Shown piece after piece: positions 7,802 to 64,000 of a DNA stretch of 64,000 nt. The notes beneath the pieces were generated by a model. The model was given only the letters and a program-made list of their open reading frames with translations. It did no database searches and was not told the DNA's origin. Numbering within the stretch: the first letter of the stretch is position 1; each line of letters opens with the position of its first letter. The stretch comes from Massalongia carnosa (lineage: Eukaryota): positions 992,001-1,056,000 of the forward strand of contig OZ287085.1 in NCBI GenBank assembly GCA_965645245.1, in the 5' to 3' direction. The translations under genes were made by a program, and so were the position numbers.

Positions 7802-8665
7802 ATGTCGGCTCTCACAGGTGAGGATAATGCTGAAACGAACGATAGGTCAACCCCTATCACCGCCGAGGAATTCCTTCATCGAATTGTTCTGAGGGAGAAC
7901 GGTCAACTAAAGCACAAGGATTCGACCTTTCGTCTTCATGTGCGAGAATATACTCGTGCATGGAGCATTCTCGGAGATCAGCGACATCCATTGCACGGAT
8001 ACGCATTTGATAAGCTTCGGTGAATTGCGCTCTGATGTTTCCGATATTCTTGAATACTGCTAACGATATGTAGCTACGATTACGACTCCGTGACGCAGCA
8101 ACTACAAATCATGTCGACCAGTTTAGAACATGAGTCCTTTGTTGCCAAGATTGTGGCCATCATCAACGAGCGATTACAATCATCGGCTTCGTCGGAGCTG
8201 CAGAAGATGTTCACATCAAAGATCGAAGTCTTGAATAGCGCACCGTTCCATTATACCGAATCAAAGGACCCTTGCTATCAATCAGAAGAGCCTTCAATAT
8301 CATTCAATTCTCCTCTCTCCTGGAATCTACGCTCGCCAAGTCTCCGCTTCTTCAATGACGAAAACTCACCCCATACAAGTTCTTTTCCTACTCACGATGT
8401 CGACGACATTTCCAATACAAGCTCTTTCTCCTCGGAGGCTAGTGATGTAGTAAGGCATCTCCAACCGGATTCTCAATGGCGGTTTGAGGGAGCAAAATTA
8501 TCAAGTATTGTGCTTGAAGTGGCCAAGAGTCAGTCATATGACAGCTTAGAAACGAAAGCGAAGCAATTTATCTCCGATTCAAATGGGGAATATCCACGGT
8601 CGTTGGCTTTATGCTCAATTCAGAAGGTCGCGGAGACGAAAGGTTACATAAAGATTGTTCTGTGA
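7802..8665 (+). pseudogene. Fungal hypothetical protein with PD-(D/E)xK/Uma2-like motif, 3' end disrupted
   Basis: Probable intron at about 8020-8072 (GTGAAT...CTAAC...TAG). Motif QPDSQWRF...IVLEVAKSQSYDSLETKAKQFISDSNG, followed by an apparent frameshift and then Copia sequence. Confidence 0.4.
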
Positions 8666-8758
8666 TGATCGTGTGGATTGCTGTTCGTAAGACGAACAAG
8701 TCCTACGTCGCAAAACGCGCTTGCGAGGAGGTGAGTTTGTCGAAATGGTCAAAATACG

Positions 8759-11700: not shown

Positions 11701-12693
11701 TCTACCGTTGCAGTTAACATACAAAGGTCACTTACAACCCTTGAACGGTTACACTGACGCGGATTGGGCCGGAGATCATCATACCCGATGGTCTACCTCT
11801 GGCTTCGTGTTTAATGTGGGTAGTGGCGCTATTAGCTGGTCTTCCAAACGACAACCGACCGTAGCCCTATCTTCATGCGAAGCCGAGTACATGGGTCAGA
11901 CTCAAGCCACCAAGGAAAGCCGTCTGGCTGTCTAGTCTTCTCGACCAACTTTCAGCACCTCAAGTCCCTGGGAATCACTCTCTCCAAACCCAGTGCACCT
12001 CTGTAGCCCTTGCCTGCTTGCCTACATCTTTCGCCCTAAATGCTATCATCATTCACTGCGACAATCAAGGAGCAATGGCTTTGGCCAAAAATCCCCAGGA
12101 ACACGCGCGGAGCAAGCATATTGACATCCAATGGCACTACCACAGAGAGAAGATCGAAGACAAATCAGTGGAATTTCGCTATGTTCCTACCGAAGAACAG
12201 GTAGCTGACGGCCTAACCAAGGCCCTACCAAAGGACAAATTTGTTGTCTTTCGAAAAGCTTTAGGCTTAGAGTAAACCAGAAGCCCTTTGTCGTAAAAAT
12301 TTCGACCTTAACTCAAAAAAAAAAAATTAAAGTATCACCCACAGCTGAGCTTGTGGGGGTATTTTCGTACATCGCCAGCAGCATTAGCCTGCGGAGTACA
12401 CTGACTCACCTGCAGGTGATCCACTGGGAAGCATGATATTATACTGGAGTATGTGGGAGTTATTGAATTTCTCTTTATCATGTGGGAGTGCTATTTCAGT
12501 GCCTAAGTGGGAGTGTTAGAATGTACAAATCAGCTACTTCATTTCAGCCGCACGAGTATGGCGCACGCTAATGGCTAGACGTATCGCTAGTCTAATACTA
12601 GCATACCGTACATTGTCTATAAATCTAGCTATTCCCACTATATAGAACAATAGCAAGCGTTCTATCCTCTATCTACTATACTAACTTTTGACA
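8759..12693 (+). mobile_element. Ty1/Copia LTR retrotransposon (Copia-1), 5'-truncated, defective
   Basis: Zn knuckle CNHCRKDYHVESEC, protease WICDSG, GAG-pre-integrase WHARLGH, integrase core, RT YVDD and RNase H DADWAG in Copia order. In-frame TAG at 11294 and a frameshift near 11915. Confidence 0.92.
12514..12693 (+). repeat. 3' LTR of Copia-1
   Basis: Polypurine tract AAGTGGGAG followed by TGTTAG...TTGACA. No second copy in the window. Confidence 0.65.
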
Positions 12694-15600
12694 CCGTGAC
12701 CTACAACAAGGCCTCGAGTTCAAAGACGAGCGAAACTTCCGAGGCTAGTCCCGCTCAAGCAGCCGTTACCTCCCCGAGTCGTAAACGACCCCGAGAAGAC
12801 ACCACCGACTCTCCAAAAATCACTTGTTGGAATTGTGGTAAGAAGGGTCATAAAAAATCTGACTGTCGAGCCCCAACAAAGAAGACGGGAAAAGCTTAGA
12901 GTCAATCGATATTGCCTCGATTGTGTTGGCTCGGCAAAAGAGAGGTGAAAAAATAAATCACTTGTTTATTATGATAACTTTATATCTAGGACAAGTCATA
13001 CTACGAATTCGGGCCATGATTGACTACGGCTCGACATGGAATTTCGTGTCACAACTCAAGGTCAAAGAACTCGGTATCCGATTCACCCCCGACTCGCCAC
13101 CGCCGTCCGATTTAAAGACTCTGGATGGAACACCTCTGCGTACCTATCGAAATCACTCCCTACTAATTGGGGTTGTTGATAGTAGGGGTATTGAGGATCG
13201 AACGGAACATAAGTTCGTGGGTGCTGACATGTTCGGGGTGGATATGATACTAGGCCTACCCTGGTTAAACTGGGTGGACCCGGTTATCCGCTGGCATGAG
13301 CGCAAATTGTTCCATGTTCGTCGGACCAAAAGTGGCGACGATGGGGCTTGTCTGCATGAGATTTTACCTCTCGAGACTGAAAGGCCTGTAGACGGGGGAG
13401 TTACCCCCCCCCCGAAGTAAAAATACCAGTAGTCAAGCGGACGTAGCGATGGTGAGCAGGGACGAAATTTGGGACATTTGTGAAAAAGATGGAGTTCAGG
13501 AATTCCTTTTAGATATCGAGAAGCTCGATCGGGCAGGAACCGTAGTCGGTTCGGTGACGGAGGTTACAAATGAAATCCCTTCCAAATATTCAGATTTCCA
13601 TGACGTCTTTTCGAAAGATAATGCACAGAAGTTGCCTGAACATGGACCTCAGGATCATGCTATCGATACGGAAGGAAAACAGCCTCCATTCGGCCCAATA
13701 TACAATTTATCCTTGACCGAGTTACAAATATTACGGGAGTACCTCGACGAATATTTGGCCAAAAGATTTATAGTTCCTAGCACTTCATCGGCCGGTGCTC
13801 CTATTTTATTCGTCAAGAAAAAGGAGGGTGGTCTGAGACTATGTGTTGATTATCGGGGACTGAACGCTATTACCATAAAAAATCGATATCCTTTATCCTT
13901 GATCATGAACCTATTAAATGTTCTGGTTGGCGCCGTCTACTTCACTAAACTCGATATCCGGGATGCATATCATAAAATCCGGGTACGGGCCGGTGACGAA
14001 TGGACACCGGCTTTTCGATGCAGGTACGGTCAATTTGAATACCGGGTTATGCCTTTCGGACTAGTCAACGCCCCTGCGTCATTCCAGGCCTACATAAACG
14101 AAGCCCTACAGGAATGTTTAGATGACTTCGTAGTGGTGTACTTGGACGACATTTTGATATTCTCCAAATCGATGAAAGATCATACATTTCATGTACGACT
14201 AGTCCTGGAGAAATTATGGAAATTCAGTGTACAGGTGAAATTATCCAAGTGCCTCTTTGACCAGACTGAAATTGAATTTCTGGGATTTATTGTAAAACGG
14301 AATGGTATATCTATGGACTCGTCTCGGGTGGCGACGATTATAGATTGGCCTGAACCCAAAAATCATCGAGATGTTCAAGTATTTCTCGGGTTTGCAAATT
14401 TCTATAGGCGATTTATCAACGAATTCTCGCGCATTGTGGCCGCCTTAACGACGCTACTAAAAGGGGGAAAGAAAGGAAAGTTCGATATTAAATTCTCATT
14501 CACCGAAGAAGCAAGAGAATCATTTCGTCGTCTCAAGCATGCTTTTACCACCGCTCCTATTTTATTGCATTTTGACCCTAAGCGGAAAATACAATTAGAG
14601 ACGGACGCGTCCGGAGTCGCAATTTCAGCTATTTTATCACAATTGGTTGAATCGACGGGACAGTGGCATCCTATTGCTTTTTAGTCAAGAAAAATGCATG
14701 CAGCCGAATTAAACTACGGTGTTGGCGAAACAGAAATGTTGGCCATTGTTGAAGCATGTAAGGAGTGGAGACATTATCTTGAGGGGGCGATACATTTGAT
14801 TCGGGTAATAACCGATCATTGTAATCTTCGTACCTTTCTTACTACCAAAAAGTTATCTAGACGAGAGGCGAGATGGTGGGAAAGACTTTCTAGTCTTGAT
14901 CTCGTCATTGAATATCGTCCAGGTCGTCATAATCCAGCCGATGGACCCTCTAGACGCCCGGATTATATGGAAGAAAGGCACGACTTGTCTCATCAAGCCG
15001 GAGCTATAATTCCTGGAAGATTCGGGGGGGTCTCGGAGAGGAATCGGGGTGGGATAGAGGAGCTCATTACGTCAAATTGGACAATGGCCCTTGTGAATGA
15101 TGAATCTCAAGTAGCTGACGATGCTATGGATTGGGAATCTACTATAAATGAATTATCAGACGGGGCAAATCGCAATTTGATGAGTCCACCCGTTGTCGAC
15201 AAAAATTGTCGGAGTACTGCGTAGGCCCAACAAACCACTGAAGGAATTGGAATTGATTCGGCTGAAATTGTCGAAATTCCTGAAATTCTTGCGGTTGTTG
15301 GAAGAACTAAGGGGAAACAATCCGGAAGTAGTTCCGATACCTCTCAGTTACACGAGAAATTGATTAATATAAAATCAGTTGGACTCAAACTCGTGGAAAC
15401 TTTGGATGAGAAGTTTGAAAATTCTCGGAAAGAGATAAAAAATGTCTCTGAGAAAGACTCGGCGTTTGGGGCCGCCCCAAAAGAACTACGCACCGTTTTA
15501 CAAATTCTGCAAGAGCCTGATCAACTAGTGCAGAAGAAACGGCCCTCCATCGCAGCGTCGATGGAAGAGGGGCGGAATTCTATAGGACGACTACATGACG

Positions 15601-17246
15601 CGTCGAGGGATAAATCGGGGGGCAACGAAGACTCGTCAGGCTCTCAGCTCCAAGACGGGCGGGAGTCGGGGGGCGAAGTCGAAGGAGACCTAGAAAAAAC
15701 CCGATGGCACATGAAGGATAATATCCTATGCAGGGACAATAGGTGGTATATTCCCCCTGGTCTATTACGTGCTGAACTTTTGCGGCAGAATCATGATGAT
15801 CCCAATGCGGGCCACTTTGGTTATTCCAGAACGTTGGAATTGATCCAGAGGAAATATTATTGGCCCGAAATAGTCAAGGATATCAAGCATTATGTGGAAA
15901 CGTGTACTCGTTGTCATCAAGTCAAATCGTCCAGACATAAGCCCTTCGGATTATTAGAATCCCTACCCGTACCAAAAGGGCCTAGACAAAATTGGACGAT
16001 GGACTTCATAACGGATCTGCCCCCGAGTCTCCGCCGAACCGTGGCCTATGATGCGATTCTTGTCATGGTGGATCGGTATACGAAATATTCTCGATATATT
16101 CCCGCACGAAAGGACTGGAATGCTGAAATCATGGCTGACGTCCTAGTGGAAGAAATATTTACCAAATTCGGTATGCCAGTGTCTATTGTCTCGGATAGGG
16201 GTAGTTTATTCACCTCAGATTACTGGTCTCATTTCTGTTATCATTTGAGAATTCGACTCAGTTACAGTACAGCCTTTCATCCACAAACAGATGGTCAAAC
16301 CGAGATACAAAATCAGACACTGGAACAATATCTACGATGCTACGCCAATTATCAACAGGATGACTGGACTTACTGGTTACCCTTGGCAGAGTTTGCTTAT
16401 AATAATAGCTTACATAGTGTCATAAAAATGACCCCCTTCGAAGCTATATTTGGAGAAGCGCCCAAATGGGAAGACGAAATTCTGACTGAAAATGGGTCCG
16501 AGGTTCCTGCTGCACGCGTCCTGGCCACTGACATAATGGACAAAAGAAAACACCTGGAGAAATTATTACAAACAGCTTCAAGTACCCAGGCTAGATATTA
16601 TGATCAGAAACATATTCCCAAGACGTATAATGTGGGTGATAAAGTCCTCCTGAACGCAAAAAATATTAAATCCACTCGTGCGTCCAAAAAACTGGACTAC
16701 AAATATTACGGGCCATACGAAATTGTCTCTTCTATAGGAAAACAGGCCTACAAACTCCAACTTTCCCCGTTATTGAAGGGCATTCATAATGTGTTCCATG
16801 TTTCCCTATTGGAACCTTATAGATATGACCCGAACAAAATATCTGAACCACCTCTACCCATAGAAGTAGAAGGGGAAGAACAATGGGAGGTAGAACAGGT
16901 GCTGGATAGTAGAATTCACTATGGAAAACTCCAATATCTGGTGAAATGGATGGGATTTTCTGATACGGATAATCAATGGTTATCCGTCGAAGACATGGAA
17001 GGATCACAGGAATTAATTAATTCCTATCATAATCAATATCCGGAAAAACCGTCCAGAACTCCTACGAGGAAGAAAAGAAAATCGAAGGCATGAACCATTT
17101 CCATTGGAGTCGAATGATCCAGAATCAGACTGCTATCTACCACACCACAACCACCTTCTCTCACCCCTTCACCCCCTTTTCAATCACCAAAATATCCTCC
17201 CCTGGAGGGGGTCCAACCTCTAATCCTGCCTAAAAGTGTCAAATGA

Positions 17247-17734
17247 TTAAATTAATTCGGCACTAGACCTCCCCCAAGAGATGAGCCACCGAGCAGCGGA
17301 AATTGACTGGAACCTACCCAAATTAGACCAAATTTTCCTAATAGAGCTCCACCTACGGAGAACATTCATCCTTCTTCCGGCGACACTCCCCACACTTCCC
17401 CGACTCCTCGGACCACTCACAGGCGACAGGGTCGCCCCCAAGGGTCTGCTTGGCACACCGGAGGCAAACGCTTACCTCCGGGGTAGGCCCCACCCAAATG
17501 GGCGGGTGGAGGAGCGAAAAAGGGGGAGGCAGAGGGGAACCGCCACGAACCGGGGCGGAAACGGGTGGCGCGGCCGGGGGAAACCAAAACACCCAGGAAA
17601 ACATGGTCCTGCGGACCAGGAGTGGTAGGGCGGCGGGGGCGAGGAGGGGGGGAAACGGCCGGGTGGGACCGCTTGGCCCGCGATGAACGGGCAGAAACCG
17701 GAACAACACGCCGAGGTTGTTTAGACCTCGACAT
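17247..17734 (-). pseudogene. Antisense Cys-rich Zn-finger-like ORF inside the Gypsy-1 3' region
   Basis: Pro/Arg-rich start MSRSKQPRR, then in another frame CLRCAKQ...ACEW...KCGECRRKKDEC. Possible intron GTAGGT...CTAAT...TAG at about 17313-17356. Confidence 0.45.
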
Positions 17735-18136
17735 GAGAGTTGATGATGGAGTGGTTGATGGTAAAGTGATGAAAGATTGATGAAAATATGGAGTACGGAG
17801 TTGGGTGAGGTGATGTTTAAAGAGAAAGAAACAACGAACCCTACCTGTTGATATGAAAAGAAAGAAGAGACTAAGCCCAAAAAAGTTGGCACCGCCAGCA
17901 AGGTACGCTCAACAACAACGAAGGGTTAAGACTGATGAGACGTCAACAGAACAATAAGAAAGAGTTGAGACTTGGACTCATGACAGCAAGCATGACTTCT
18001 AGACTGAACACGGATAACGTGTGTCTGAAGATGCTATCCCTAGTACTCGGACAGTACCCGGAACCACATGCGATATGAAGTTATACAGAACTTTCACATC
18101 GGGCTCCTGAGGACATGAGCCCTAGAAGGAGGGTAA

Positions 18137-18424
18137 TGTCAGGTCACGCACGTCCTGACATAAGCGAATCGGTAGTTATAACCGATCTCCGATCTCTGAC
18201 TAGGACACGGCTCGTCTTCGTAATCTTCTTTTCATTGTACCAATCATAATCACAGTAATTAAATCAACGGACTGGTGACCCTAAGAAGTGGGGCTATAGG
18301 ATAAAGACCTGATCGCCCACTTCTTTCAAGGGGTCACTGATCAATTTATTGATTTACCACTCTCTATTCGTACATTCATCACGAATCCATATAGTAGTCA
18401 CGCTGTTAGACTTGACCCCTTACA
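18137..18424 (+). repeat. 3' LTR of Gypsy-1
   Basis: Polypurine tract AGAAGGAGGG-TAA followed by TGTCAGG...CCTTACA. Confidence 0.65.
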
Positions 18425-18948
18425 GATTGTTCTTATTTTGATTAGTAATTTCGTTCATGATTTTATCCATGGCTTTGTTATTAGTCGTGAAATTATTTAT
18501 CGTGGCTTTCTCATCTGTAACTTTATCCACATCATTTTCCTCTTTATCATGAAGCACAATATCAGATTGATCAACAAATGCTAGTATTTTCAGTTAATTA
18601 AGAGAGATGTTCTTGATCATATGCACATCCTGATAGTCTGAATAATGAGCAGTTAGAAAATCCGACCAGACCTCTTCGTTTTTACGCTGTAATTTGAACG
18701 ATTTGCCAAACTCTCGATGCACAGCACTATCATTGACAGACAAAGAAGATGGTTTCAGAATTATAACTTGCTATTTCGTTGGCAAAGAAGAAAGACGATG
18801 TGGAAGAATAAACTGGGTGGTGTGCGTGGTCCACTACTGCTAGGAAGTTAGGAGAACAAATAAACAAGAGAAGAGCAAGACAATAAAATAAGAACGACGC
18901 ACTGCATGCCTCGTGCCTCGTGCCTCGTGCCTCTGTATGTGAGCTGTA

Positions 18949-19535
18949 ACGTAACCCACTAGACAACCGTTCAACGGAACTAAGAAATATACGTCCACTT
19001 CCTCCCCGACTAAAAGTGGGCAGAAATGTCCTCAGAAAGCATCTTGTTGAATTGCACTGCCCTAGTTCTAGAAGTTTCTATGCTTAGTCAGCTGAATGTA
19101 TATTAGCCGCTCTTCTCCCTCTATAGTACAATCAACCGTCTCAAGTTTCAACACATCTGATAGTTCACAAAGAACGCTTATAAATCCTTTCAAAAGATCA
19201 TTACTCCCCCCTCCCATGCTTCGACCAATCAGGGAGGCGGAAGAGATAGTAGAAGGGCTGCAAGAGGTAGAGTTGATGAAGGTAGTGGAAGGGGTGAAAG
19301 AGGTAGAGGAGGAGGAGGTGAAAATGGTTAAAATAAACCCGACGGGGTCGCATTGTCCGACCACTAAGCAAAATGTGACTGCTTTATGAAACATGCATGC
19401 ATATATAATGTTATTTTTACATATAATAGTCATTGAAGATAGAATTGTAAAATGGGTGGGAAGAAGGCTTCAAAGACTAAGCGAAAATTAGTTAGTTCCG
19501 TTGAACGGTTTGTTCCGTTGTCTAGTGAGTTACGT
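18949..19535. mobile_element. Non-autonomous pogo/Fot1-type DNA transposon (MITE-like, 587 bp)
   Basis: Terminal inverted repeats ACGTAACCCACTAGACAAC..CGTTCAACGGAACTAA and TTAGTTCCGTTGAACG...GTTGTCTAGTGAGTTACGT, flanked by TA on both sides. Confidence 0.8.
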
Positions 19536-20119: not shown

Positions 20120-20360
20120 CTATTGCATCAGCAGCAAGTAGCATTTGCATTATTTTATCATGATCTTCCGCTGATGCAGCCTGTAATGCGCTGTCATATC
20201 ACATTGAGCATTGGGATTAGCCTCTTTGTCGAGCAGTATCTGCATCACTCGAGCATGATCATTAGATGACGCCGTCAGCACCTTGAGCGTTCACGTTGAC
20301 TCTTATCTTCAGCAGCTGCGATGCTTGGTCATGACCTTCAGATGATGCGGCTTGCACTTC
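20120..20360 (-). pseudogene. Degenerate ankyrin repeats
   Basis: Minus strand reads VQAASSEGHDQ...VNVNAQG, ASSNDHARVMQILLDKEANPNAQ and ALQAASAEDHDKIMQMLL. Confidence 0.6.
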
Positions 20361-20993: not shown

Positions 20994-22259
20994 CTACACA
21001 GAGTCTTTTGGGTTAATGCCATGATAAGTATTCTTTATGTTCTATCAGCTTGTACATCGCTATCGAAAGGATAGGTGATCCTTACAGAGATATTACTTCC
21101 AGTTATCCTAACCCCGTCTGTGGCCGTACTGTTTGCATGACCCATAATCACACCTCGATTGTTATCGATATTGCCCCTAAAGTTAACATCGCCCATACGA
21201 ACCGAGTGTTTCTGTTGGGTTTCAGCTGATTTCAAGCGCGCGAAAGAGATGTCAGACCTGGCGATCCTCTTCAGATCCCTTGGATCGACTATCAAGATCC
21301 GATATCCATTGAGCCAACTTTTGTGAAATTCTCTTGTATCCCTCTCGGTCTTCATCCTCAAACTTGCACATATCAACATGATTCGCCTGGATCGACTGTG
21401 GATCGATACCAGGCAGGCAAGCCGATTCCTTGGGCACGATAAATCCCATCTTCGTCCCTCCCTTGTACATAGCATACCGTTCAAAGAAGCAAGCTACTTC
21501 CACAAACTCTCTTGATTCCGAACGATCTCGTGCTTTTAGGAATTTCTGAAAGGCTTCGTTAACGCTGATGAGCTTTGCCGAACGCTCTTCAAGATCCTTT
21601 ATATCCTGCTTATGCGTGGTACTTATCCAGCCCAGTATCTGTAGAGCCCTGCTTCCCCATTTCGCTTTTGACGATCCCTCAAAGGGCGTTCCAAGGAAGC
21701 CGACTCCAATCGTTCTCTCTACGAGGGCAGTGCTAGCTATGTCGGTACCATTGTGCCTTGACAACGCATTGGCGCACACGAGACCCCCTAGGCTGTGCGA
21801 GACGAAAATAATCGGCCGTTCAGCCTAGACATAGACATCCTATTAGCATATTTCTGTGGAAAGGGTAGGGGTGCGCCGATTCCTACAGTTTTGGTTTTCT
21901 CGCGGAGACCGATTAGGCTCTGGAACATTGCAGTCGCGTGATCATCAATAGTCAAATGCTCAGGGATGAATTTCGGTCCAACAAACGGATAGAAGTGAGA
22001 AAAGTCCGCATTGTACCCAAAAGAAAGGATGCGAGCTGTTGGGCAGGCTTGAGGTAAGAGATCTTGAGGCCACAACAGCGATCTATCTCGACCCTCCCAT
22101 GTCCAAGTTTTCACTCTGTCGCCGCCGAGCCCGTGGACGAAGACAATACTGTTTGGTCAGTACAAAGCAACCCGGACGAGAAATGACATCTGGTGCGTAC
22201 TCTGTATTCGCCTCTGGAGAATCAAAGAAGGGGTCGCCTAATCCGTACGGTTCGGCCAT
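20994..22259 (-). CDS. SesB-like alpha/beta-hydrolase (putative lipase effector) with C-terminal candidate amyloid signalling motif, about 350 aa, 5 exons
   Basis: Exons 22259-22201, 22148-21887, 21824-21258, 21211-21086 and 21032-20994 (all GT-AG) join in frame. Motifs DIVFVHGLGG, WPQDLLP, RILSFGY, nucleophile elbow FVSHSLGG, FLGTPFEGS and NHVDMCKF. Tail KHSVRMGDVNFRGNIDNNRGVIMGHANSTATDGVRITGSNISNTYHGINPKDSV*. Confidence 0.85.
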
Positions 22260-22558
22260 GCTGGCGTTGTCATCGCAATACTACAGAGGAGTCGTGCTTC
22301 AAATTTAGCACTATAACTTATGCGAGATAATCGTGATACCGCCTGCATGGAGAGACCAGCTCGTGCATAGCCTTGGCTCTATCAGCGGCGAGTCCGTGCC
22401 TATATTTATACCTAGAGATGAACAGTGCTTTTGGAAAGTCGTGGGCGTCGAGTTTCCGACCGAGCCTAGTTGCGGTCCTGAGCACGGTAAAGATAATGGT
22501 TTTCAGTCTTATTCAATATTGCTCCGAGCTCTAATGTCTACAATCTTCTGACGCAGCA
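22260..22558. promoter_or_regulatory. Putative bidirectional promoter between effector and NLR
   Basis: 299 bp between divergent ATGs, with a TATA-like CTATATTTATA at about 22400 that is conserved in the second copy (about 62855). Confidence 0.5.
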
Positions 22559-25161
22559 ATGGTCGGTAACACGCTAGCGGTCTCTACAAGCGCGAAGGAT
22601 TTTGGCACCATTTCTGGCAATCAAGGCGCTGTGGTCGGTGACGTCTCAGGCCATGCAAAAGTGATTGGTCTGGGTCCTGTTCACATCGATATTGATCTTA
22701 TGCTAAATCCTGATTAGGCTCTCAGATATACAATATTGTTCAATATCGAGGCAAGTCGGCATTCGCAATGATATAGCGTTCTGTGAGCCAAGGCTGATAG
22801 CATTCTGCGTTTGTAGAAAGACCCGATACCCCACTAAGCCCATCATCTACTGTTCCTTTCCGCCGCGACCCTGATTTCGTCGATCGCGGAAAGCTACTTG
22901 ATCAGATCCACGAAAAGTGCTCCGCGCCAGCGTCAAGGGTAGCGCTTGTCGGCCTAGGCGGCGTTGGGTAAGCTAAAGGGCCTCAGGCTAGTTCTAATAG
23001 CTTACTTTCGCAAAGAAAGTCGCAGCTTGCCATCGAATACTGCTATCGAATCAGAGAGCACTTGCCGGCGACGTGGGTTTTCTGGATACACGCCAGCAAC
23101 GCAGCCCGTATCGAGCAAGGTTATAGAAAGATTGCAGAGCAAGTCAAGATTCCTGGCAGGGGGGACCCAAAGGCGGACATATTCCGGCTAGTTGAAAAGT
23201 GGTTATGCAACGAGAAGAACGGAAAGTGGGCTCTGGTCCTCGACAATGCCGACGAAACTACTGTGCTGTTCGAAACTCTTATCACGGGCCCGAAGGCGCA
23301 GGCCAGCGGGTCTAGCGGCGGGCACACGCAATCACTGTTAGCATATCTACCTCAGAGCCGAAACGGCTCGATTCTCGTCACCACCCGGACTAAAAGTGTG
23401 GCATTGCAGCTAGCGGAAGAAAGTGACATAATACCGATTGAGCCGATGAATTATGCCCATGCGCTAACGCTTCTTGAAAAGAAGCTGGGAGAACAGATCG
23501 ATAGCGAAGATACTTCTGAGCTAGCTGTAGCACTTGAATTTATGCCGCTTGCCATTGTTCAAGCGGCTGCATACATTCGACTAAGAGTACCAAGATATTC
23601 TGTACGACAGTACGTAGATGAGTTCCATAAGAATGATAAAAGAAAGACTAGTCTCTTGAATCACGAAGCGGGACATCTTCGCAGGGACCTGGAGGCTAAA
23701 AACTCGATCATTATAACCTGGCAAATATCGTTTGATCATATTCATCAGATCAGGCCTTCGGCGGCTAATCTGCTGTCGCTTATGAGCTTTTTCGATCGAC
23801 AGGGAATTCCTGAGGCTTTACTCAAGACACAATACGAAGGGGAAAATGAAAATACAGCCGAAGCTGCTGGAGATGACGCAGATGATGACCACAAAGACGA
23901 TAGCGATGGGGATATCGTAACCTATCTCAGCGTCGATGAGTTTGAAGACAACATACTTATCTTGAGAAACTATTCGTTCATCACCATCAGCATAGATGGA
24001 ACTACCTTTGAGATGCACGGGCTAGTGCAGCTAGCCGTCAGAAAGTGGCTAGAAGCATCTAATCAGCTCGAAAGATGGAAGCAGCAGTTCATCAAGAATC
24101 TCTGTACAGTATTTCCGAATGGGGATTACGAGAATTGGACAAAGTGTCAAGCGCTTTTTCCTCACGCAAAGTCAGCAGTAGCGCAGCAGCCAGCTGTCGA
24201 AAGCTCATTACAAGATTGGGCCTTGATACTATATCACGCTGCGTGGTATGCGTGGGCGAAAGGGAGTTACATTGAAGCAGCGACAATGGCCTTAAAAGCA
24301 ACAAGAACCAGGCAAAAAGTGCTGGGTCTAGAGGATGAAAAGACATTGGAGAGTATGGCTATACTAGCCATGGCATACAGCGATGGAGGGCGACTAAAGG
24401 AGGCAGAAAAGCTGCAGGTGCAAGTGATGGAGACGAGTGCGATGGTGCTAGGGACGGAGCATCCAGACACGCTGATGAGCATGGGCAACCTTGCGTCGAC
24501 GTATTTGAATCAAGGACGATGGACGGAAGCCGAAGAGCTGGGCGTGCAAGTGATGGAGACGAGAAAGAGGGTGCTAGGGACGGAGCATCCAGACACGCTG
24601 ATGAGCATGGGCAACCTTGCGTTGACGTATTGGAGTCAAGGACGATGGACGGAGGCCGAAGAGCTGGAGGTGCAAGTGGTGGAGACGAGAATGAGGGTGC
24701 TAGGGACGGAGCATCCACACACGCTGATGAGCATGGGCAACCTTGCGTTGACGTATTCGAATCAGGGACGATGGACAGAGGCCGAAGAGCTGGGGGTGCA
24801 AGTGATGGAGATGAGTGCGAGGGTGCTAGGGACGGAGCATCCAGACACGCTGAAGAGCATGGGCAACCTTGCGTCGACGTATTCGAATCAAGGACGATGG
24901 ACGGAGGCCGAAGAGCTAGAGGTGCAAGTGATGGAGATGAGAAAGAGGGTGCTAGGGACGGATCATCCTTCCACGCTGACTAGCATGAACAACCTTGCAT
25001 TCACGTGGAAGTCTCAAGGCCGCAATGATGAGGCTTTCTCACTGCTAAAGGAATGTTTTCAACTACAAAAACACAAATTGGGTCCTCAACATCCTAATAC
25101 AGAGTCTTCGCTTAAGTATCTCAATGGGTGGCAGATGAAGAGTTTATCATTGGAGTCTTAA
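22559..25161 (+). CDS. Fungal NLR (STAND): short N-terminal amyloid-like motif, NB-ARC-type NTPase, TPR array; about 812 aa, 4 exons
   Basis: Exons 22559-22667, 22718-22750, 22817-22967 and 23016-25161 (intron 2 is GC-AG) join in frame. Motifs VPFRRDPDFVDR, P-loop GLGGVGKSQLA, Walker B WALVLDNAD, ILVTTR, MPLAIVQAA and FEMHGLVQ, followed by 42-aa TPRs. Confidence 0.9.
24400..24990 (+). repeat. Highly conserved 126-bp (42-aa) TPR tandem repeats
   Basis: GTGCTAGGGACGGA recurs at 24445, 24571, 24697, 24823 and 24949. Confidence 0.95.
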
Positions 25162-25328: not shown

Positions 25329-25800
25329 CTAGGTTTTGAACTCGCCCGCGGTAGCAGAAAGGCCTAAGCGGTGTGCTCGAACTGTTCCAAATAGCAGGAA
25401 GTCGTCAAACTTTCTCCCTCGAGCATTCGTATCCGCGCCCTTGTCCAGCAACATCTCCGCCACCTTTTCGTGGTCTAGTTCCGCTGCCCATATTAACGCT
25501 GTCCGCCCGTGCTGAGCTTGTGCCTCCAGATCTACCAATTTAGCACCCATGATCATGCTCAGGATAACTTCGTGTCCATTGAACGCTGCAAGCCTGTTGT
25601 CAATCATGACCGGCTGGTCTTTATATCATGATAAAGCCCGCCATAGCGAGTAAAATCATAGTCGAAATTGATTATCTTCTACTCGGCACAGTTCACGAGT
25701 CTTTGATACAACTGCATCTTTCAGCTCGAAAGCTGCATTTCGGAAACGAGCCGCCGAATGTTCAGAACCTGATTTTGCTGTATCTCGAGCCATGTTTGAC
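25329..25800 (-). pseudogene. Remnant of an ankyrin-repeat (NACHT-ANK-like) gene
   Basis: RLAAFNGHEVIL...GRTALIWAAELDHEKVAEMLLDKGADTNARG, preceded by a degenerate F..(W)F...W linker of the kind seen before ANK arrays of fungal NACHT proteins. Confidence 0.6.
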
Positions 25801-29948: not shown

Positions 29949-31112
29949 CTAGATGGAGGTGCCCGGCGGCGCTCCGGATCGATGCCCTGGTTGACCTGTA
30001 CGCCCAATGGAATGCCCAATTGAGTAGGGGTAGGAGTTTGTAGGATGCGTCTCGGCGACGACAGCACGTGGGACTGCCAGAGGGATGCCTTTTTGAAAAC
30101 TGAGGTTCAAATTGAATAGTGAGGCCTGGGACGTCTGAAAGTATAGCTGAAACGCGTTTGATGACCATCTTCCGAGTCTCTGAATACTCTCATCCAGCAT
30201 CCCGTGGTCGGTGGCGTGTTGTGCTGCTCCTTTTCTGAAGCTGTGTCCCGAGTATGCCGAGTCGTTGATGCCGGCTGCTATCAGTCTCTTTTTCAGGGAT
30301 GCTATGACGGAGGCTCTGGTGAATGCGGTGCCGAGACGAAAAAGCGGGGATGTAGATGGCTGAGGATCATTTCTGAAAAGACGCCGTAGTGCTGTCACGG
30401 GGCAAGTGCTCTCATTGGTCGCTGCCAGCACTATCTGAACTCCTGAGTGATTTGTGTCTGTTTTGCTTCTTTTGAGACGTAATGTCGCGTATTGATCGTT
30501 CTCGGCGAATGAGATGTCACCTCGTGTAGGTTTCAATCTCTGAAAAGATGTCTTCTTACGATCGGCGACAGTGTAGGTGATTTCCCCGAGTCTGAGGAAC
30601 CCTGCCCATGCAACTTTGAATGTCGCGTCGATGTTGAGGTCTTCGGCCGAATGAGCGGGAATACTGGTGATTTTTGTCAGTAATTCTTTTGAAATGGGTA
30701 GGCGTCTTCTTTTTGTCTGAGAAAAGATCCTTTTTCCCCCTTTCAGCATCAATTGAAGTCTCGGCCCCTCGAATGGGGTGAGGCCGTATCCTCGGTCTAC
30801 ATGGTATGATCTGAGGCCGGCGAGGTAGCTCGCTGCCGTCTCTGGTTTTATCTTTCCCTGCTTGGGTGTGCCGCCCCCGTATAGTCGACCGGCTAGCCAT
30901 TCCTCGAGGGACTCGGTTGTTGCAGGCCACGACGTGCGTCCTGTCGTCGCGCAGAATGCCTCGTATGAGTCGATCGCCGTCCCGTACCCTTTTCTCGTGT
31001 CCGCCGAGTGTCCGTGCCAGACGAGGCGTTTTACCAGGGCTGACCCTGGTGTGGAGGATAGGTAGGTGGAGGGAGGTTCATCGAATTGTATGGGTTCTGC
31101 CAATGAGGGCAA
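29949..31112 (-). CDS. Tyrosine recombinase of YR-1
   Basis: FLRLGE, KRSKTD, GHSFRKGAA and LGRWSSNAFQLY catalytic residues in an open 387-aa ORF. Confidence 0.85.
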   Translation of the reverse strand: MPSLAEPIQFDEPPSTYLSSTPGSALVKRLVWHGHSADTRKGYGTAIDSYEAFCATTGRTSWPATTESLEEWLAGRLYGGGTPKQGKIKPETAASYLAGLRSYHVDRGYGLTPFEGPRLQLMLKGGKRIFSQTKRRRLPISKELLTKITSIPAHSAEDLNIDATFKVAWAGFLRLGEITYTVADRKKTSFQRLKPTRGDISFAENDQYATLRLKRSKTDTNHSGVQIVLAATNESTCPVTALRRLFRNDPQPSTSPLFRLGTAFTRASVIASLKKRLIAAGINDSAYSGHSFRKGAAQHATDHGMLDESIQRLGRWSSNAFQLYFQTSQASLFNLNLSFQKGIPLAVPRAVVAETHPTNSYPYSIGHSIGRTGQPGHRSGAPPGTSI

Positions 31113-32535
31113 AAGTTAGCCAATCTTTCATCATCAAAACGTGACAGGGCATCTGCTAGTCCATTGGAAGTGCCACTGATCCATTGACAACGTAGTACGA
31201 TGTCCCACTTTGCAGCTATGGACAGTATTTCTCGTAGAGGCGCGTTGGCCGGTCCCTTGAGGGTTAGATTCGTGAATCCTGTGTATGCTGTGTTGCTGTC
31301 GGTAAAGACAAGGATCTGTCGATGTCGCCATGTCGGCGCCCATTTCTGAAGGATTAGAAGGATAGCCTCGACTTCTCGGACGTTTATGCTCGGTGATTCT
31401 TCCTGATTGAGGACTAGGACTCGGGCCCTACATGCGTTTTTTTGATTCACGAGCTAGTTGTCTTGTTGAAAATAGCCTCCGAGACCCGTGAGGCATGCAT
31501 CCGTATGCACCTTGATCGTGTCTCGTGTTGACGTCTCGAAGAAGACAATACCGTTGAAGTCCACTAAAAGTTTGTTCCACCAGATGAGATCCTGTCTGAC
31601 CCATGTGGGAATTCTTCTTTTGACCCGACGATGACTGCCCGAGGGAAATGAGGCTATAAAATTCCAGAATAATCGTAAGAAGACTCGGCCCAATTTGACT
31701 GCCTGTGCGCAGAAGCTTAGGAAGCCCGCTATTGACTGCATGTCGCCTCGGCTGATTGTCGTCTCGTTTAGTGCCTTTGTAGAAAGGATTCCAAAATCCA
31801 ATGAAAGCCTTCCGCAAAAAGATTGAAGATGAACGGGGCCGTCGACAGTCCGAACGAAAGGCATGTCTCGGTGTAGAATTCGTCATTCCATCCGAAACCC
31901 AGAAGCCATTGATGATGAGGTGCGACGGGAACGTTTCGAAAGGCGTCTTTGACGTCTCTTTTCACTATGACAGCACCTTTGCCCTCTGACAGAATCAATT
32001 GAATAATGTCGTCGAGTCTGGCGTATTGTAATTTGGATGCCTCTTCTGGAATTTTGTCGTTGACTGATGTTTGATTGGGATGAGACAGAGGATGAATGCG
32101 TCGCCATCCTCCGTCATGTTTCGGGACCAAGCCGAGGGGGGAGGCCACAAATGGCTGACTCGGGGCGGCTATTCGTCTGACTCGGCCCTTCCTGAGGTCC
32201 TCTTGAAGCTTATTCTCGATCGTTTCCGGGTCCTCATTCGCTGATGTCAGATTTTTTTCGATCCGAAGGATGTCTGTGGGGCCTTAGTAACCGATTTGTA
32301 CTCCGAAACGAAGGATCATGGGCAGATGGACTCGGAGGGGGCCCGGATACTCTTGAAGTAGGGTTGCCCATGCGGACGGTACGAGGGGAGATGGGCTGTC
32401 TTTCAAACGCTGACGAGATGCGTCTACGAGTTGAAACGAAGGGATTGTATTTGGTCTGATTGGTGCAGGTAAGCAGGGATGGGACGTCATGAATTCAGCT
32501 ATTGAAGCTATTCTACTGCCTCCTGCACCAACCCC

Positions 32536-61413: not shown

Positions 61414-62670
61414 CTACACAGAGTCTTTTGGGTTAATGTCATGATAATTATTCTTTATGCTCTATCAGCTTGTACATCGCTATCGAAAGGATAGGTGATC
61501 TTTACAATGATATTACTTCCAGTTATCCTAACCCCGTCTATGGCCGTACTGTTTGCATGACCCATAAGCACACCTCGATTGTTATCGATTTTGTCCCTGA
61601 ATTTAATATCGCCCATACGAACCGAATGATTCTGTTGGGTTTCAGCTGATTTCAAGCGCGCGAAAGAGATGTCAGACCTGGCGATCCTCTTCAGATCCCT
61701 TGGATCGATTATCAAGATCCGATATCCATTGAGCCAACTTTTGTGAAATTCTCTTGTATCCCTCTCGATCTTCATCCTCAAACTTGCACATATCAACATG
61801 GTTCGCCTGGATTGACTGTGGATCGATACCAGGCAGGCAAGCCGATTCCTTGAGCACAATAAATCCCATCTTCGTCCCTCCCTTATACATAGCATACTGT
61901 TCAAAGAAACAAGATACTTCCACAAACTCTCTTGATTTAGAACGATCCCGTGCTTTCAGAAATTTCTGGAAAGCTTCGTTAACGCTGATGAGCTTTGCCG
62001 AACGCTCTTCAAGATCCTTTATATCCTGCTTATGCGTGGTGCTTATCCAGCCCAGTATCTGTAGAGCCCTGCTTCCCCATTTTGCTTTTGACGATCCTTC
62101 AAAGGGCGTTCCTAGGAAGACGACTCCAATCGTTCTCTCAACGAGGGTAGTGCTAGATATGTCAGTACCGTTGTGCCTTGACAGCGCATTGGCGCACACG
62201 AGACCCCTTAGGCTGTGCGAGACGAAAATAATCGGCCGTTCAGCCTGGACATAGACATCCTATTAGCATATTTCTGGTGGAAAGGTAGGGGTGCACCAAT
62301 TCTTATAGTTTTGGTTTTCTCGCGGAGACCGATTAGGCCCTGGAACATTGCAGCCGCGTGATCATCAATAGTCAAATGCTCCGGGATGAATTTCGGTCCA
62401 ACAAACGGATAGAAGTGAGCAAAGTCCGCATTGTACCCAAAAGAAGGATGCGAGCTGTTGGGGCTTGAGATAAGAGATCTTGCGGCCACAACAGCGATTT
62501 ATCTAGACCCTCCCATGTCCAAGTTTTCACTGTCGCCGAACCCGTGGACGAAGACAATACTGTTTGGTCAGTACAAAGCAACCCGGACAAGAAATGACAT
62601 CTGGTCCGTACTCTATATTCGCCTCTGGAGAATCAAAGAGGGGGTCGCCTAATCCATACGGTTCGGCCAT
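61414..62670 (-). pseudogene. Second SesB-like hydrolase copy, inactivated
   Basis: A 5-nt loss after VHG gives an early TAA, there are further indels near 62445-62460, and the intron-2 donor GT is changed to AT. Confidence 0.8.
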
Positions 62671-63012
62671 GCTGGCGTTGTCGTCGCAATACTACAGAGG
62701 AGTCGTGCTTCAAATTTAGCACTATAACTTATGCGAGATAATCGTGATACCGCCTGCATGGAGAGACCAGGCGCTTCAGCACGTGCATAGCCTTGGCTCT
62801 ATCTGCCATCTATCCCGCATGATGGCGGGGTGCCCTCCATCGGCGAGTCCGTACCTATATTTATACTTAGAGATGAACAGTGCCTTTGGGAAGTCTAGGG
62901 CGTTGACTTTCTGACCGAACCTATGTGCGGTCTGAGCACGGTAAAGATAAGAGTTTTCAGTCTTATTCAATATAGCCTATAGCTCTAATGTCTACAATCT
63001 TCTGACACTGCA

Positions 63013-64000
63013 ATGGCCGGCAACACGCTAGCAGTCTCTACAGGCGCGAAGGATTTTGGCACCATTTCTGGCAACCAAGGCGCTGTGGTCGGTGACGTCT
63101 CAGGCCATGCGAAAGTGATTGGTCTGGGTCCTGTTCACATCGATATTGATCTTATGCTAAATCCTGATCAGGATCTCAGATATACAGTATTGTTCAATAT
63201 CCAGGCAAGTCGGCATTCGCAATGATATAGCGTTCTGTGAGCCAAGGCTGATAGCATTCTGCGTTTGTAGAAAGACCCGATACCCCACCAAGCCCATCAT
63301 CTACTGTTCCTTTCCGCCGCGACTCTGATTTCGTCGATCGCGGAAAGCTACTTGATCAGATCCACGAAAAGTGCTCCGCGCCAGCGTCAAGGGTAGCGCT
63401 TGTCGGCCTAGGCGGCGTTGGGTAAGCCAAAGGGCCTCAGGCTAGTTCTAATAGCTTACTTTCGCAAAGAAAGTCGCAGCTCGCCATCGAATACTGCTAT
63501 CGAATCAGAGAGCAGTTACCGGCGACGTGGGTTTTCTGGATACACGCCAGCAACGCAGCCCGTATCGAGCAAGGTTATAGAGAGATTGCAGAGCGAGTCA
63601 AGATTCCTGGCAGGGGGGACCCAAAGGCGGACATATTCCGGCTAGTTGACAAGTGGTTACGTGACGAGAAGAACGGAAAGTGGGCTCTGGTCCTCGACAA
63701 TGCCGACGAAGCTACTGTGCTTTTCGAAACTTGTGTTACGGGCCAGAAGACGCAGGCCAGCGGCTCTAGCGGCGGATCCATGCAATCACAGTTAGCATAT
63801 CTACCTCAGAGCCGAAACGGCTCGATTCTCATCACCTGCCGGACCAAAAGCGTGGCATTGCAGCTAGCGGAAGCAAATGACATAATACCGATTGAGCCGA
63901 TGAATCATACACATGCGCTAACGCTTCTTGAAAAGAAGCTGGGAGAACAGACCGATAGAGAAGATACTTCTGAGCTAGCAGTAGCACTTGAATTTATGCC
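63013..64000 (+). CDS. Second NB-ARC NLR copy (5' part, continues beyond window)
   Basis: Same exon structure including the GC-AG intron. N-terminus MAGNTLAVSTGAKDFGTISGNQGAVVGDVSGHAKVIGSQIYS, P-loop GLGGVGKSQLA, frame open to 64000. Confidence 0.85.

Follow-up and report, generated by a model that had tools for sequence, protein, structure and literature searches.

Of the known cases in which prion-like templating serves as a signal, fungal amyloid signalling is the simplest, and it has an evolutionary link to the RHIM of animal necroptosis. In NWD2/HET-S and HRAM1-5, the paradigm for the mechanism proposed below, the tail of an NLR templates the tail of an effector; the HRAM is described as a 21-aa unit with G19, hydrophobic residues at positions 5, 8, 10, 16 and 18 and R/K15, doubled on HeLo-type effectors (PMC4518210). 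As of 2025, the list of fungal motif families comprised HRAM, sigma, PP and two PUASM, five in all, with one single-pair addition. Closest to the locus reported here is the PP signalosome (PNT1, HELLP and the lipase SBP in Chaetomium globosum; PNT1 and HELLP in Podospora anserina), in which PNT1 and SBP of C. globosum are described as an NB-ARC/TPR NLR and a SesB-like lipase (PMC7885112, PMC5485727). PP is defined there by a G-h-Q-h-G core with Gln at the centre of a pseudopalindrome (PMC7885112, PMC3321046), is reported to form prions (PMC7885112) and, according to PMC12261475, is what the Pfam model PF17046 really describes, its label 'Ses_B' notwithstanding. In the sigma cluster of Nectria haematococca (het-eN/sesA/sesB) the C-terminal tail of SesB is likewise reported to be common to the N-terminus of the adjacent NLR, the sigma motif being given as GxGxQFNxx and GGTQNINT units repeated threefold (PMC3321046). 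PUASM (pattern FxGxGxQxxGxGxF) and the single-pair 'GDQN' motif of Fusarium oxysporum (NxxxGxQYxxxGxGDQN...) are described as motif families, each linked to a single effector family and uncovered through the same genomic logic, and thus serve as precedents (PMC9815663, PMC12261475).

The pair analysed here lies in a 64-kb window, that is, the whole stretch of 64,000 nucleotides examined from Massalongia carnosa. As in the PP system, an NB-ARC/TPR NLR without effector domain is clustered with a SesB-like effector, and a short motif is placed at the NLR's N-terminus and the effector's C-terminus, with N and G flanking a five-residue G-h-X-h-G core. Unlike PP, the motif has no central Gln, belongs to a conserved stretch of ~40 aa and carries a second [RK]-h-h-G-S block, correctly noticed as a second GS block in the first-pass annotation of this DNA; between the blocks the effector side bears a loop of four extra residues which the NLR side does not have, and no gene for a HeLo-like partner was found in the 64-kb window.

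Structure of the gene pair

Rebuilt gene models (Table 1) confirmed the head-to-head order of hydrolase and NLR, 299 bp apart from ATG to ATG, that had been noted before. The four introns of effector gene 1 (52, 62, 46 and 53 nt) are all GT-AG, and the exon layout agrees with the intron-less relatives P0122 and P0123 and with the metagenome contig L001. Because of these three sequences the last acceptor was placed 9 nt beyond the simplest choice; the protein after exon 4 then reads N-T-Y-H-G, an ending that recurs in P0123 and L001. Exon 4 encodes a S-V-x-M-G-D-V-N lead-in, the core N-N-x-G-V-I-M-G-H, the 4-residue loop and G-V-R-I-T-G-S in this order; it forms row 1 of the effector-side alignment A1, whose profile scores 70.7 bits on it, and the motif spans the exon 4/5 junction. 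DUF676 and Abhydrolase_6 (Pfam) were matched weakly by the hydrolase exon and above cut-off by full-length relatives. The Ser of S-H-S-L-G-G (nucleophile) and the His of A-N-H-x-D-M-C-K-F are invariant in 35 relatives, and effector copy 1 of the window retains both of these predicted catalytic residues. AF2 modelling of the orthologue P0122 led to an alpha/beta-hydrolase fold (pTM 0.75; Foldseek matches among esterases and thioesterases with E from 5e-8 to 7e-6) with a confident core, and to a tail (residues 290-344) with pLDDT 33-55 and no secondary structure. With this predicted fold, the nucleophile elbow and a putative catalytic His, the effector can be classed as a SesB-like alpha/beta hydrolase.

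Table 1. Coordinates of the hydrolase/NLR pair and its second copy, counted from the first letter of the window
Feature	Position	Strand	Description
Effector gene 1	20994..22259	-	SesB-like alpha/beta hydrolase, 350 aa, 5 exons
Effector gene 1 exons	22259-22201, 22148-21887, 21824-21258, 21211-21086, 21032-20994	-	stop at 20994-20996
Effector exon 4	21086..21211	-	42 aa; carries C-terminal motif nearly complete
Effector exon 5	20994..21032	-	12 aa + stop; motif end N-T-Y-H-G, then short tail
Divergent intergenic region	22260..22558	.	299 bp between start codons; presumed shared promoter
NLR gene 1	22559..25161	+	812 aa: N-terminal motif, NB-ARC, DUF7779, TPR; 4 exons
NLR gene 1 exons	22559-22667, 22718-22750, 22817-22967, 23016-25161	+	
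NLR-side motif	22589..22750	+	~residues 11-46, across intron 22668-22717 (exon 1/2 junction)
Tandem TPR_10 repeats in NLR sensor domain	24399..25006	+	126-bp period, 4.8 copies, 89% matches
Effector gene 2	61414..62670	-	diverged copy, ~93% nt identity to effector gene 1
NLR gene 2	63013..64000	+	truncated by window end; exons 63013-63121, 63172-63204, 63271-63421, 63470 onward

NLR gene 1 has introns of 50 nt (GT-AG), 66 nt (GC-AG, 22751-22816) and 48 nt (GT-AG), whose positions are kept in L001; the GC donor of the second intron is also present in the second copy of the window and is a canonical GT in L001. Upstream of the NB-ARC part we find ~46 aa with no effector domain and no Pfam family, in agreement with the about 45 aa reported in the first pass, and both terminal peptides quoted there are indeed present after splicing, across the NLR exon 1/2 and effector exon 4/5 junctions. 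The NLR-side motif consists of the core F-G-x-I-S-x-N-x-G-A-V-V-G-D-V-S-G, followed by A-K-V-I-G-S-Q and an aromatic-rich end, and on exon 1 the profile made from the NLR-side alignment (A2) gives 78.5 bits. Pfam analysis gave TPR_10 (4e-89), DUF7779 (2e-7) and NB-ARC with 20.5 bits, below the cut-off of 23.5, a weak score because the Walker A sits in the preceding exon (G-L-G-G-V-G-K-S straddles exons 3/4); the full-length orthologue P0007 from Lobaria immixta, which shares the N-terminal layout, clears the cut-off with 33.4 bits. Walker A, NB-ARC (via P0007), DUF7779 and TPR_10/TPR_12 are therefore all found, as is characteristic of fungal NB-ARC/TPR NLRs.

The pair is duplicated as a unit inside the window (second, decayed copy, 61414-64000), with 342 bp between NLR gene 2 and effector gene 2. 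In exon 2 of effector gene 2, three deletions (5, 3 and 1 nt) cause a frameshift and an in-frame stop, and the invariant Gly of S-H-S-L-G-G is replaced by Arg; the motif exon (61631-61506) and the last exon (61452-61414) remain open, and the gene is probably a pseudogene. The exon-1 peptide of NLR gene 2 differs from copy 1 in 2 of 37 residues and its motif core is unchanged. The surrounding region is rich in transposons.

Likeness of the two tails

Alignment of the NLR N-terminus with the effector C-terminus of pair 1 led to a Smith-Waterman score of 45, compared with 25.4 +/- 5.3 for composition-preserving shuffles, 18 out of 5000 of which reached it; other gap costs gave a score of 43 (15/5000). 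The score of the cognate L001 pair was reached by none of 5000 shuffles (z 6.3), and the likeness was weak for window pair 2 (195/5000) and for the Lobaria pair (92/5000), whose effector model is without its last exon. The resemblance of the pair 1 termini is thus above chance, yet modest. NLR-side tails were seen in only five sequences of four named species, and in L001 besides. When A2 (5 rows) was compared with A1 (30 rows) by hhalign, a probability of 89% (P 2.1e-6, 34 columns) and a score of 29.0 were obtained; 300 column-shuffled controls gave 8.5 +/- 1.9 with a maximum of 17.4, none reaching the score, and removal of the window's own rows left 27.6 (P 4.2e-6). The earlier statement that the two ends align is therefore borne out both by pairwise and by profile-profile comparison.

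An HMM made solely of effector-side sequences gave 0.1-4.6 bits on NLR N-termini, with the window NLR first of 121, and at E 0.01 none of 55 NLR N-termini passed; similarly, the 51 matches of the A1 profile among 1.84 billion representatives included no NLR N-terminus. Started from the effector side, the profile search thus retrieved no NLR N-termini, and the two sides are therefore less alike than PP, sigma or PUASM pairs. The window NLR tail scores 65 against P0133, a foreign effector, and 45 against the effector of its own pair; judging from these alignments, cluster-specific co-evolution of the tails is absent in the window.

Conservation and pairing across fungi

Co-conservation of the pair, on which its first interpretation depended, was detected in other genomes. 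In Lobaria immixta the NLR MMC22_008330 and the effector MMC22_008331 have consecutive locus tags on contigs of equal size (53149), L001 bears the same head-to-head pair with identical intron positions in both genes, and in related ENA assemblies five of six distinct contigs (told apart by size) with the effector motif exon also contain the NLR orthologue. Pairing is not universal, since the motif-bearing NLR (P0051) and effector (P0125) of Lindgomyces ingoldianus are on contigs of differing size. Logan contigs of relatives (1.3-2.5 kb) are intron-less and contain the coding sequence in full, both motif exons among it, the genomic copies having four introns. These contigs, and likewise the Lobaria gene model, show that the terminal exons, whose presence in transcripts had been proposed as a check, are used in relatives.

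The effector-side motif is conserved in SesB-like hydrolases of Lecanoromycetes and Dothideomycetes, the lineages checked, and occurs in hydrolases of further genera which we take to belong to Eurotiomycetes, Sordariomycetes and Leotiomycetes. The linker leading up to the motif lacks such conservation: mean top-residue frequency on this side reaches 0.47 within the motif, against 0.30 for the linker and 0.24 for the tail, a pattern read as selection on the tail motif. In 32 of 33 A1-matching proteins (29 of these built A1), between 1 and 30 aa separate the motif end from the C-terminus. Among the 14 longer A1 matches from the 1.84 billion representatives, counted after two unrelated repeat proteins had been set aside, six contain a Pfam domain, always DUF676 or Abhydrolase_6, and the other eight gave no domain match; among the sequences examined, the motif thus appears tied only to SesB-like hydrolases. 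Effector tails contain 16% G, 11% N, 11% V, 8% I, 1.6% L, 1.3% P and 2.4% K, a bias also reported for amyloid signalling motifs by Dyrka et al. (bioRxiv 10.1101/2020.01.06.895854). In composition and in AF2 disorder, the tail would behave like a prion-forming-domain-type appendage.

Relation to described motifs and alternative explanations

No Pfam family was matched at E<=10 by the motif exons and peptides of the window. Sigma units are absent from the window tails and A1 on inspection, and PF17106 (NACHT_sigma) gave no Pfam match. Neither block shows the HRAM spacing on inspection, K/R-h-h-G being one residue too short: with the Gly threaded at HRAM position 19, G or A falls on 15 and polar residues on 5 and 8; PF11558 (HET-s) matched none of the window peptides and homologues scanned. 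The PUASM pattern is absent from the window tails and A1, and the PUASM and GDQN effectors are PNP_UDP and SesA, in contrast to DUF676/Abhydrolase_6 here. Metazoan RHIM (RIPK1/RIPK3) and bacterial BASS3 are related in the G-h-X-h-G region via PP, as far as described (PMC7885112; 10.1101/2020.01.06.895854); both keep the central Gln, which the window motif does not have (BASS3 compared by description). A check of the searchable pair tables in Wojciechowski et al. 2022 for six effector accessions and six motif strings found none of them.

PP aligns to both tails in one N-x-G-h-X-h-G register with the flanking N-x-G ... G kept on both sides, and the central Gln position is occupied by Ile in the window effector (G-V-I-M-G) and by Val in the NLR (G-A-V-V-G), which fits the PP/RHIM-like core with an aliphatic residue described in the first pass. 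A PP-type profile was matched at the N-terminus by 39 of 55 NLR relatives with a short extension (13 of the 39 built the profile), and the NLR-side tail occupies the place where these paralogous NLRs bear PP; together with the NLR and effector types, which are those described for C. globosum PNT1/SBP (PMC7885112, PMC5485727), with Gln in the central column of 3/30 effector-side sequences and with cross-matches of the A2 profile to four PP-type N-termini, this would suit a divergent motif within the established PP family (PNT1/HELLP/SBP type), acting by the same mechanism and making a new family unnecessary. We nevertheless regard such simple membership as unlikely, since the defining Gln is missing in 27/30 effector-side and 5/5 NLR-side sequences, and since PF17046 at E<=10 matched neither window peptide, none of the three Gln-bearing relatives and none of nine full-length motif-bearing homologues, with PP-type controls at 19.3-32.0 bits (beyond ~E 0.1, matches may be lost to the HMMER filters). 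Moreover, PP reached probabilities of only 26% with A1 and 11% with A2 over 14 columns, compared to 89% over 34 columns for A2 with A1, and the published tables are silent as given above. The proposal of an undescribed motif family thus stands as to its absence from these tables; as to an unrelated family it does not, since the motif grades into PP (Gln in 3/30, A2 cross-matches), and a PP-derived subfamily is therefore preferable. The tail is most likely a PP-derived, SesB-specific amyloid-signalling motif.

A functional sensor/effector pair might also use non-amyloid tails, either for finite heterotypic beta-strand docking or as an autoinhibitory or membrane-targeting tail of the hydrolase; each side is indeed conserved as an orthologous lineage apart, the two differing in length by a constant four residues and not homogenising within clusters, the Gln ladder of PP/RHIM is missing, and the AF2 monomer tail is merely disordered. 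This is rather improbable in our view, because composition and G/N spacing match known amyloid signalling motifs, position and gene layout are those described for amyloid signalling (PMC3321046, PMC9815663), and the core is continuous with PP, reported as prion-forming (PMC7885112). Least probable is chance likeness of low-complexity tails in genes that simply adjoin each other in a region rich in NLRs and transposons: the modest pairwise scores, the effector-side HMM's inability to retrieve NLR tails and the abundance of transposons could be explained in this way, but the profile-profile controls (0/300), the L001 pair (z 6.3), the recurrent adjacency in Lobaria, L001 and related assemblies and the conservation of both tails across fungal classes already disfavour it.

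Proposed mechanism and significance

From the conserved pairing and the related tail profiles, the interpretation as an amyloid-signalling pair is supported, all computational checks suggested in the first pass having favoured it as far as they were run, and we think it probable that the locus encodes an NLR and its effector as a two-gene module of this type for cell death or defence, with a PP/RHIM-related tail. Its steps, from oligomerisation through amyloid folding and templating to enzyme activation, we infer from the NWD2/HET-S and PNT1/HELLP/SBP paradigms. A ligand would be sensed via the TPR repeats and the NLR would oligomerise via its NB-ARC, gathering the effector-less ~46-aa N-terminal tails, which could then fold cooperatively into a cross-beta nucleus. 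This nucleus would template the related C-terminal tail of the neighbouring SesB-like serine hydrolase, disordered as a monomer, and the hydrolase may thereby be clustered or activated. Common to both tails is the consensus N-x-G-h-h-h-G, with an aliphatic residue for the central Gln, followed by [RK]-h-h-G-S-x-x-N-x-Y.

More tentatively, and with somewhat more doubt than confidence, the tails may define an uncatalogued SesB-specific amyloid family of at least five Pezizomycotina classes, derived from the PP/RHIM core by loss of the Gln, with two sides that are kept different for asymmetric heterotypic templating. The sensor and effector versions would have been systematically distinct since the split of Lecanoromycetes and Dothideomycetes, the sensor side without the 4-residue loop. 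The central Gln ladder would then be dispensable for such signalling, and templating would be stably heterotypic instead of relying on near-identical tails co-evolving cluster by cluster. Profile-HMM screens from one side of such a pair can miss the partner. If true, a widespread Gln-less, hydrolase-specific relative of PP would enlarge the motif catalogue, the unequal length of sensor and effector tails would bear on the mismatch tolerated by templating, and the family would be a natural experiment on the core residues needed by the RHIM/PP-type fold.

Domain organisation and gene structure

As judged from its sequence, the minus-strand protein of pair 1 belongs among the SesB/DUF676-type alpha/beta hydrolases. 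Its large exon gave weak DUF676 and Abhydrolase_6 matches, and full-length relatives scored above the Pfam cut-offs. The AlphaFold2 model of P0122, an intron-less relative 90% identical to the window hydrolase, resembles esterases, thioesterases and lipases (pTM 0.75), and the putative catalytic residues, Ser in S-H-S-L-G-G and His in A-N-H, do not vary among 35 relatives and are both found in window copy 1. The plus-strand protein, transcribed divergently and separated from the hydrolase start codon by 299 bp, is assigned as an NB-ARC/DUF7779/TPR NLR. A tandem array of 126-bp TPR units (4.8 copies, 89% alike) lies in its sensor part, and the approximately 46 residues ahead of the NB-ARC part match no Pfam family.

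Coordinates of the paired genes and of surrounding features in the window
Feature	Position	Strand	Remarks
Hydrolase gene 1	22259-22201, 22148-21887, 21824-21258, 21211-21086, 21032-20994	-	5 exons, 350 aa; 4 GT-AG introns of 46-62 nt
NLR gene 1	22559-22667, 22718-22750, 22817-22967, 23016-25161	+	4 exons, 812 aa
Second effector copy	61414-62670	-	hydrolase of the duplicate pair
Second NLR copy	from 63013	+	342 bp from the second effector
Open frame	2-1501	-	runs past the window start; AAA_17 and HAD-like hydrolase domain; unrelated to the pair
Transposon-rich DNA	8054-19500, 26600-57500		around the pairs
Recombinase-like ORF	29952-31115		weakly tyrosine-recombinase-like
Ankyrin-repeat ORF fragment	20153-20290	-	Ank 0.01
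Ankyrin-repeat ORF fragment	25332-25625	-	Ank 1e-9

Use of the terminal exons on which the first-pass annotation had placed both peptides is backed by sequences from relatives. The full hydrolase is coded uninterrupted on Logan contigs of 1.3-2.5 kb (P0122, P0123, P0236 and P0242), the junctions of which coincide exactly with the window hydrolase introns placed here, both motif exons included; as the genomic copies in the window and on L001, a metagenome contig with the same head-to-head pair, carry four introns, we take these contigs to be spliced mRNA. In the GenBank model of Lobaria immixta MMC22_008331, the motif exon is joined at the position used in the window effector, and the Lobaria NLR model (P0007) has the N-terminal layout of the window NLR. 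On L001, both NLR introns match those of the window in position and phase, with a second donor of canonical GTAAGT compared to GCAAGT in both window copies (22751-22816; 63205-63270). According to relatives, the last effector acceptor lies 9 nt beyond the simplest reading, so that the effector tail continues N-T-Y-H-G. Sequence contigs from four runs cross the introns and the intergenic region and show no splice-like joints. Those of runs X2-X4 contain a 34-nt insertion at 22382-22386, and some probably come from copy-2-like sequence or other alleles, as copy 2 has a 35-nt insertion relative to copy 1 at the same site.

Similarity of the two tails

The earlier alignment of the NLR and effector tails was correct in substance, and both motif strings were recovered. 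The NLR tail reads F-G-x-I-S-x-N-x-G-A-V-V-G-D-V-S-G followed by A-K-V-I-G-S-Q, and the effector tail F-x-G-x-I-x-N-N-x-G-V-I-M-G-H followed by four extra residues and G-V-R-I-T-G-S-N. When pairwise scores were compared to 5000 composition-preserving shuffles, that of the pair 1 tails was reached in 18 (15 with other gap costs), that of the second window pair in 195 and that of the Lobaria pair, whose effector model is without the last exon, in 92, while none of the 5000 reached the score of the L001 pair (z 6.3). The signal is clearer at the family level: hhalign of the five NLR tails (A2) against the thirty effector tails (A1) led to 89% probability over 34 columns (P 2.1e-6), and the observed score of 29.0 was reached by none of 300 column-shuffled versions of A1 (8.5 +/- 1.9, maximum 17.4). 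The comparison holds without the window rows (27.6, P 4.2e-6).

An HMM-based search for the motif, as envisaged in the first-pass annotation, recovered hydrolase C-termini but retrieved no NLR N-termini with the effector-side model. This HMM gave 0.1-4.6 bits on NLR tails, with the window NLR at the top of 121, and 0 of 55 NLR N-termini fell below E 0.01; among 51 matches of the effector-side profile to 1.84 billion representatives, none was an NLR N-terminus. In large part, the weak response of NLR tails is explained by the fixed four-residue length difference. Residues 1-48 of P0007 matched only themselves among 30 candidates when used as homology query with a strict word index, and gave no usable match in the ESM Atlas. 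Sensor and effector tails are less similar than in textbook pairs.

Distribution of the motif and conservation of the pairing

Across the relatives compared, the hydrolase tail is widespread. Among the 42 longer sequences related to the hydrolase exon, 33 match the A1 profile, 29 of these 33 having been used to build it, and in 32 of the 33 the motif ends 1-30 aa before the C-terminus. The 29 aligned sequences exclude one partial (P0141), two divergent (P0143, P0155) and two near-duplicate proteins (P0151, P0153), as well as P0156-P0163, which are without tail or of different architecture. Named sources are Lecanoromycetes and Dothideomycetes (lineages checked), Aspergillus, Penicillium and Nannizzia, which we take to be Eurotiomycetes, Xylaria, Fusarium, Thozetella and others, presumably Sordariomycetes, and Pseudogymnoascus, Hymenoscyphus and Venustampulla, which we assume to be Leotiomycetes. 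Mean top-residue frequency is 0.47 in the effector motif versus 0.30 in the preceding linker; G, N, V and I are abundant in the motif and L, P and K scarce, and it is disordered in the AF2 monomer (pLDDT 33-55). All A1 matches with a recognisable domain are DUF676 or Abhydrolase_6. Two long matches to the A1 profile (P0180, P0195) were set aside as false positives, since they are repeat proteins whose domains are either of the bacterial Ig/cadherin-like type or unrelated. The NLR side is represented by only five tails, one each from the window, Lobaria immixta and Lindgomyces ingoldianus and two, both shortened, from paralogues of Patellaria atrata; L001 provides one more.

The pairing is conserved at every examined place except one, in line with the co-conservation in other genomes expected from the first reading. 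In Lobaria immixta, the NLR and the hydrolase follow directly on one another in both locus tag and accession number, on a contig of 53 kb. A search for related loci with the seven-row alignment A4 led only to two short metagenome contigs, L001 with both genes head to head and a hydrolase nearest to Dothideomycete sequences, and L002, which begins within the effector gene and is uninformative on a neighbour. In related ENA assemblies, the effector motif exon occurs on contigs of six distinct lengths, and for five of these an NLR orthologue was found as well, which is evidence of linkage rather than of adjacency. The one departure from the pairing is Lindgomyces ingoldianus, whose motif-bearing NLR and hydrolase lie on contigs of different length; amyloid pairs from non-adjacent genes are discussed in the 2022 survey (PMC9815663).

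The whole pair is duplicated in the window (61414-64000, approximately 93.5% nucleotide identity to pair 1), which shows that sensor and effector move as a unit. The second hydrolase is broken: its exon 2 has lost 5, 3 and 1 nt, which shifts the frame and leads to an in-frame stop, and Arg replaces the invariant Gly of its nucleophile elbow; in the second NLR tail, 2 of 37 residues are changed relative to copy 1 and the core is untouched. A third NLR paralogue (P0003), 89% identical to copy 2 across 161 aa, is located elsewhere on a contig whose length equals that of the window contig. In contrast to what is usual for such systems, pairwise scores place the window NLR tail no nearer to its own effector tail than to foreign ones, which, together with the retention of each side in its own lineage, favours a stable asymmetric pair over co-evolution within clusters. 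The L001 tails have one substitution in common, a His preceding the conserved Asn.

The transposon ORFs around the pairs are copia-type (RVT_2, gag_pre-integrs), gypsy-type (RVT_1, Integrase_H2C2, Chromo) and LINE-type (Exo_endo_phos, RVT_1, RNase_H) or belong to MULE and DDE_1 families. The short ankyrin ORF fragments on both sides of pair 1 may be what is left of a further gene with repeats.

Relation to known amyloid motifs

A short N-terminal extension is present in 55 of the best 120 NLR relatives, and a PP-type profile matches 39 of the 55 at exactly the motif position, 13 of these 39 having built the profile. The Pfam model PF17046, labelled Ses_B, is the PP model and is termed misnamed in a 2025 paper (PMC12261475). 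It gave 19-32 bits on PP-type NLR paralogues, and no match to the window tails, the Lobaria, Lindgomyces and Patellaria NLRs, six effector relatives or the three Gln-bearing effector tails. In Cenococcum geophilum, an 828-aa gene model (P0032) combines NB-ARC in a single protein with a SesB-like hydrolase and with a PP motif at residues 343-365 (PF17046). Comparison of PP with both tails led to a single register, N-x-G-h-X-h-G, over 14 columns only and with 26% and 11% probability. In 27 of the 30 effector tails and all five NLR tails, Val, Ile, Leu, Met or Ala takes the place of the Gln that defines PP (PMC7885112, PMC3321046). Neither tail has sigma units, HRAM spacing or the PUASM pattern; the second block was ruled out as HRAM, its spacing being one residue short.

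The comparison with known profiles, proposed at first pass, separates the tails from PF17046, sigma, HRAM and PUASM, but the motif grades into PP: three effector members bear the Gln and the A2 profile also matches four PP-type N-termini, which together show continuity with PP. That the motif of pair 1 should simply be filed under PP would agree with this continuity, yet is unlikely given the failure of PF17046 and the replaced Gln. A distinct, PP-derived motif in an amyloid-signalling pair is the reading that we consider probable.

DUF676, PGAP1 and Abhydrolase_6 were among the effector types on which the 2022 survey was based, and its accessible text links SesB-like effectors to PP and sigma alone; rows for effectors of these three types in its pair tables bear PP/RHIM- and sigma-group motif ids (PMC9815663). 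None of six family accessions or six motif strings occurs in its searchable pair tables; its profile and FASTA files and two archives may contain these proteins or a similar motif. The 2025 paper gives five fungal families and one new SesA-linked pair (PMC12261475), and a full-text literature search found no description of the shared tail in the text it covered. The subfamily therefore appears uncatalogued, although the undescribed family first suggested is better seen as a PP-derived subfamily tied to PP by its Gln-bearing members.

Proposed mechanism

The type of system is textbook for fungal amyloid signalling. By analogy with NWD2/HET-S and PNT1/HELLP/SBP, ligand binding by the TPR repeats would lead to NB-ARC oligomerisation, the gathered NLR N-terminal tails would nucleate a cross-beta fold, and this fold would template the hydrolase tail, by which the hydrolase would be concentrated or activated. 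Anatomy, conservation and descent from PP support this mechanism and, with it, the initial reading of pair 1 as a putative NLR-effector amyloid signalling pair. In the Chaetomium PP system, HELLP takes SBP to the membrane region (PMC7885112), whereas the window contains no HeLo-like partner bearing the motif. The subfamily would serve as a natural test of the requirements of the PP/RHIM core, and is a useful addition rather than a new principle.
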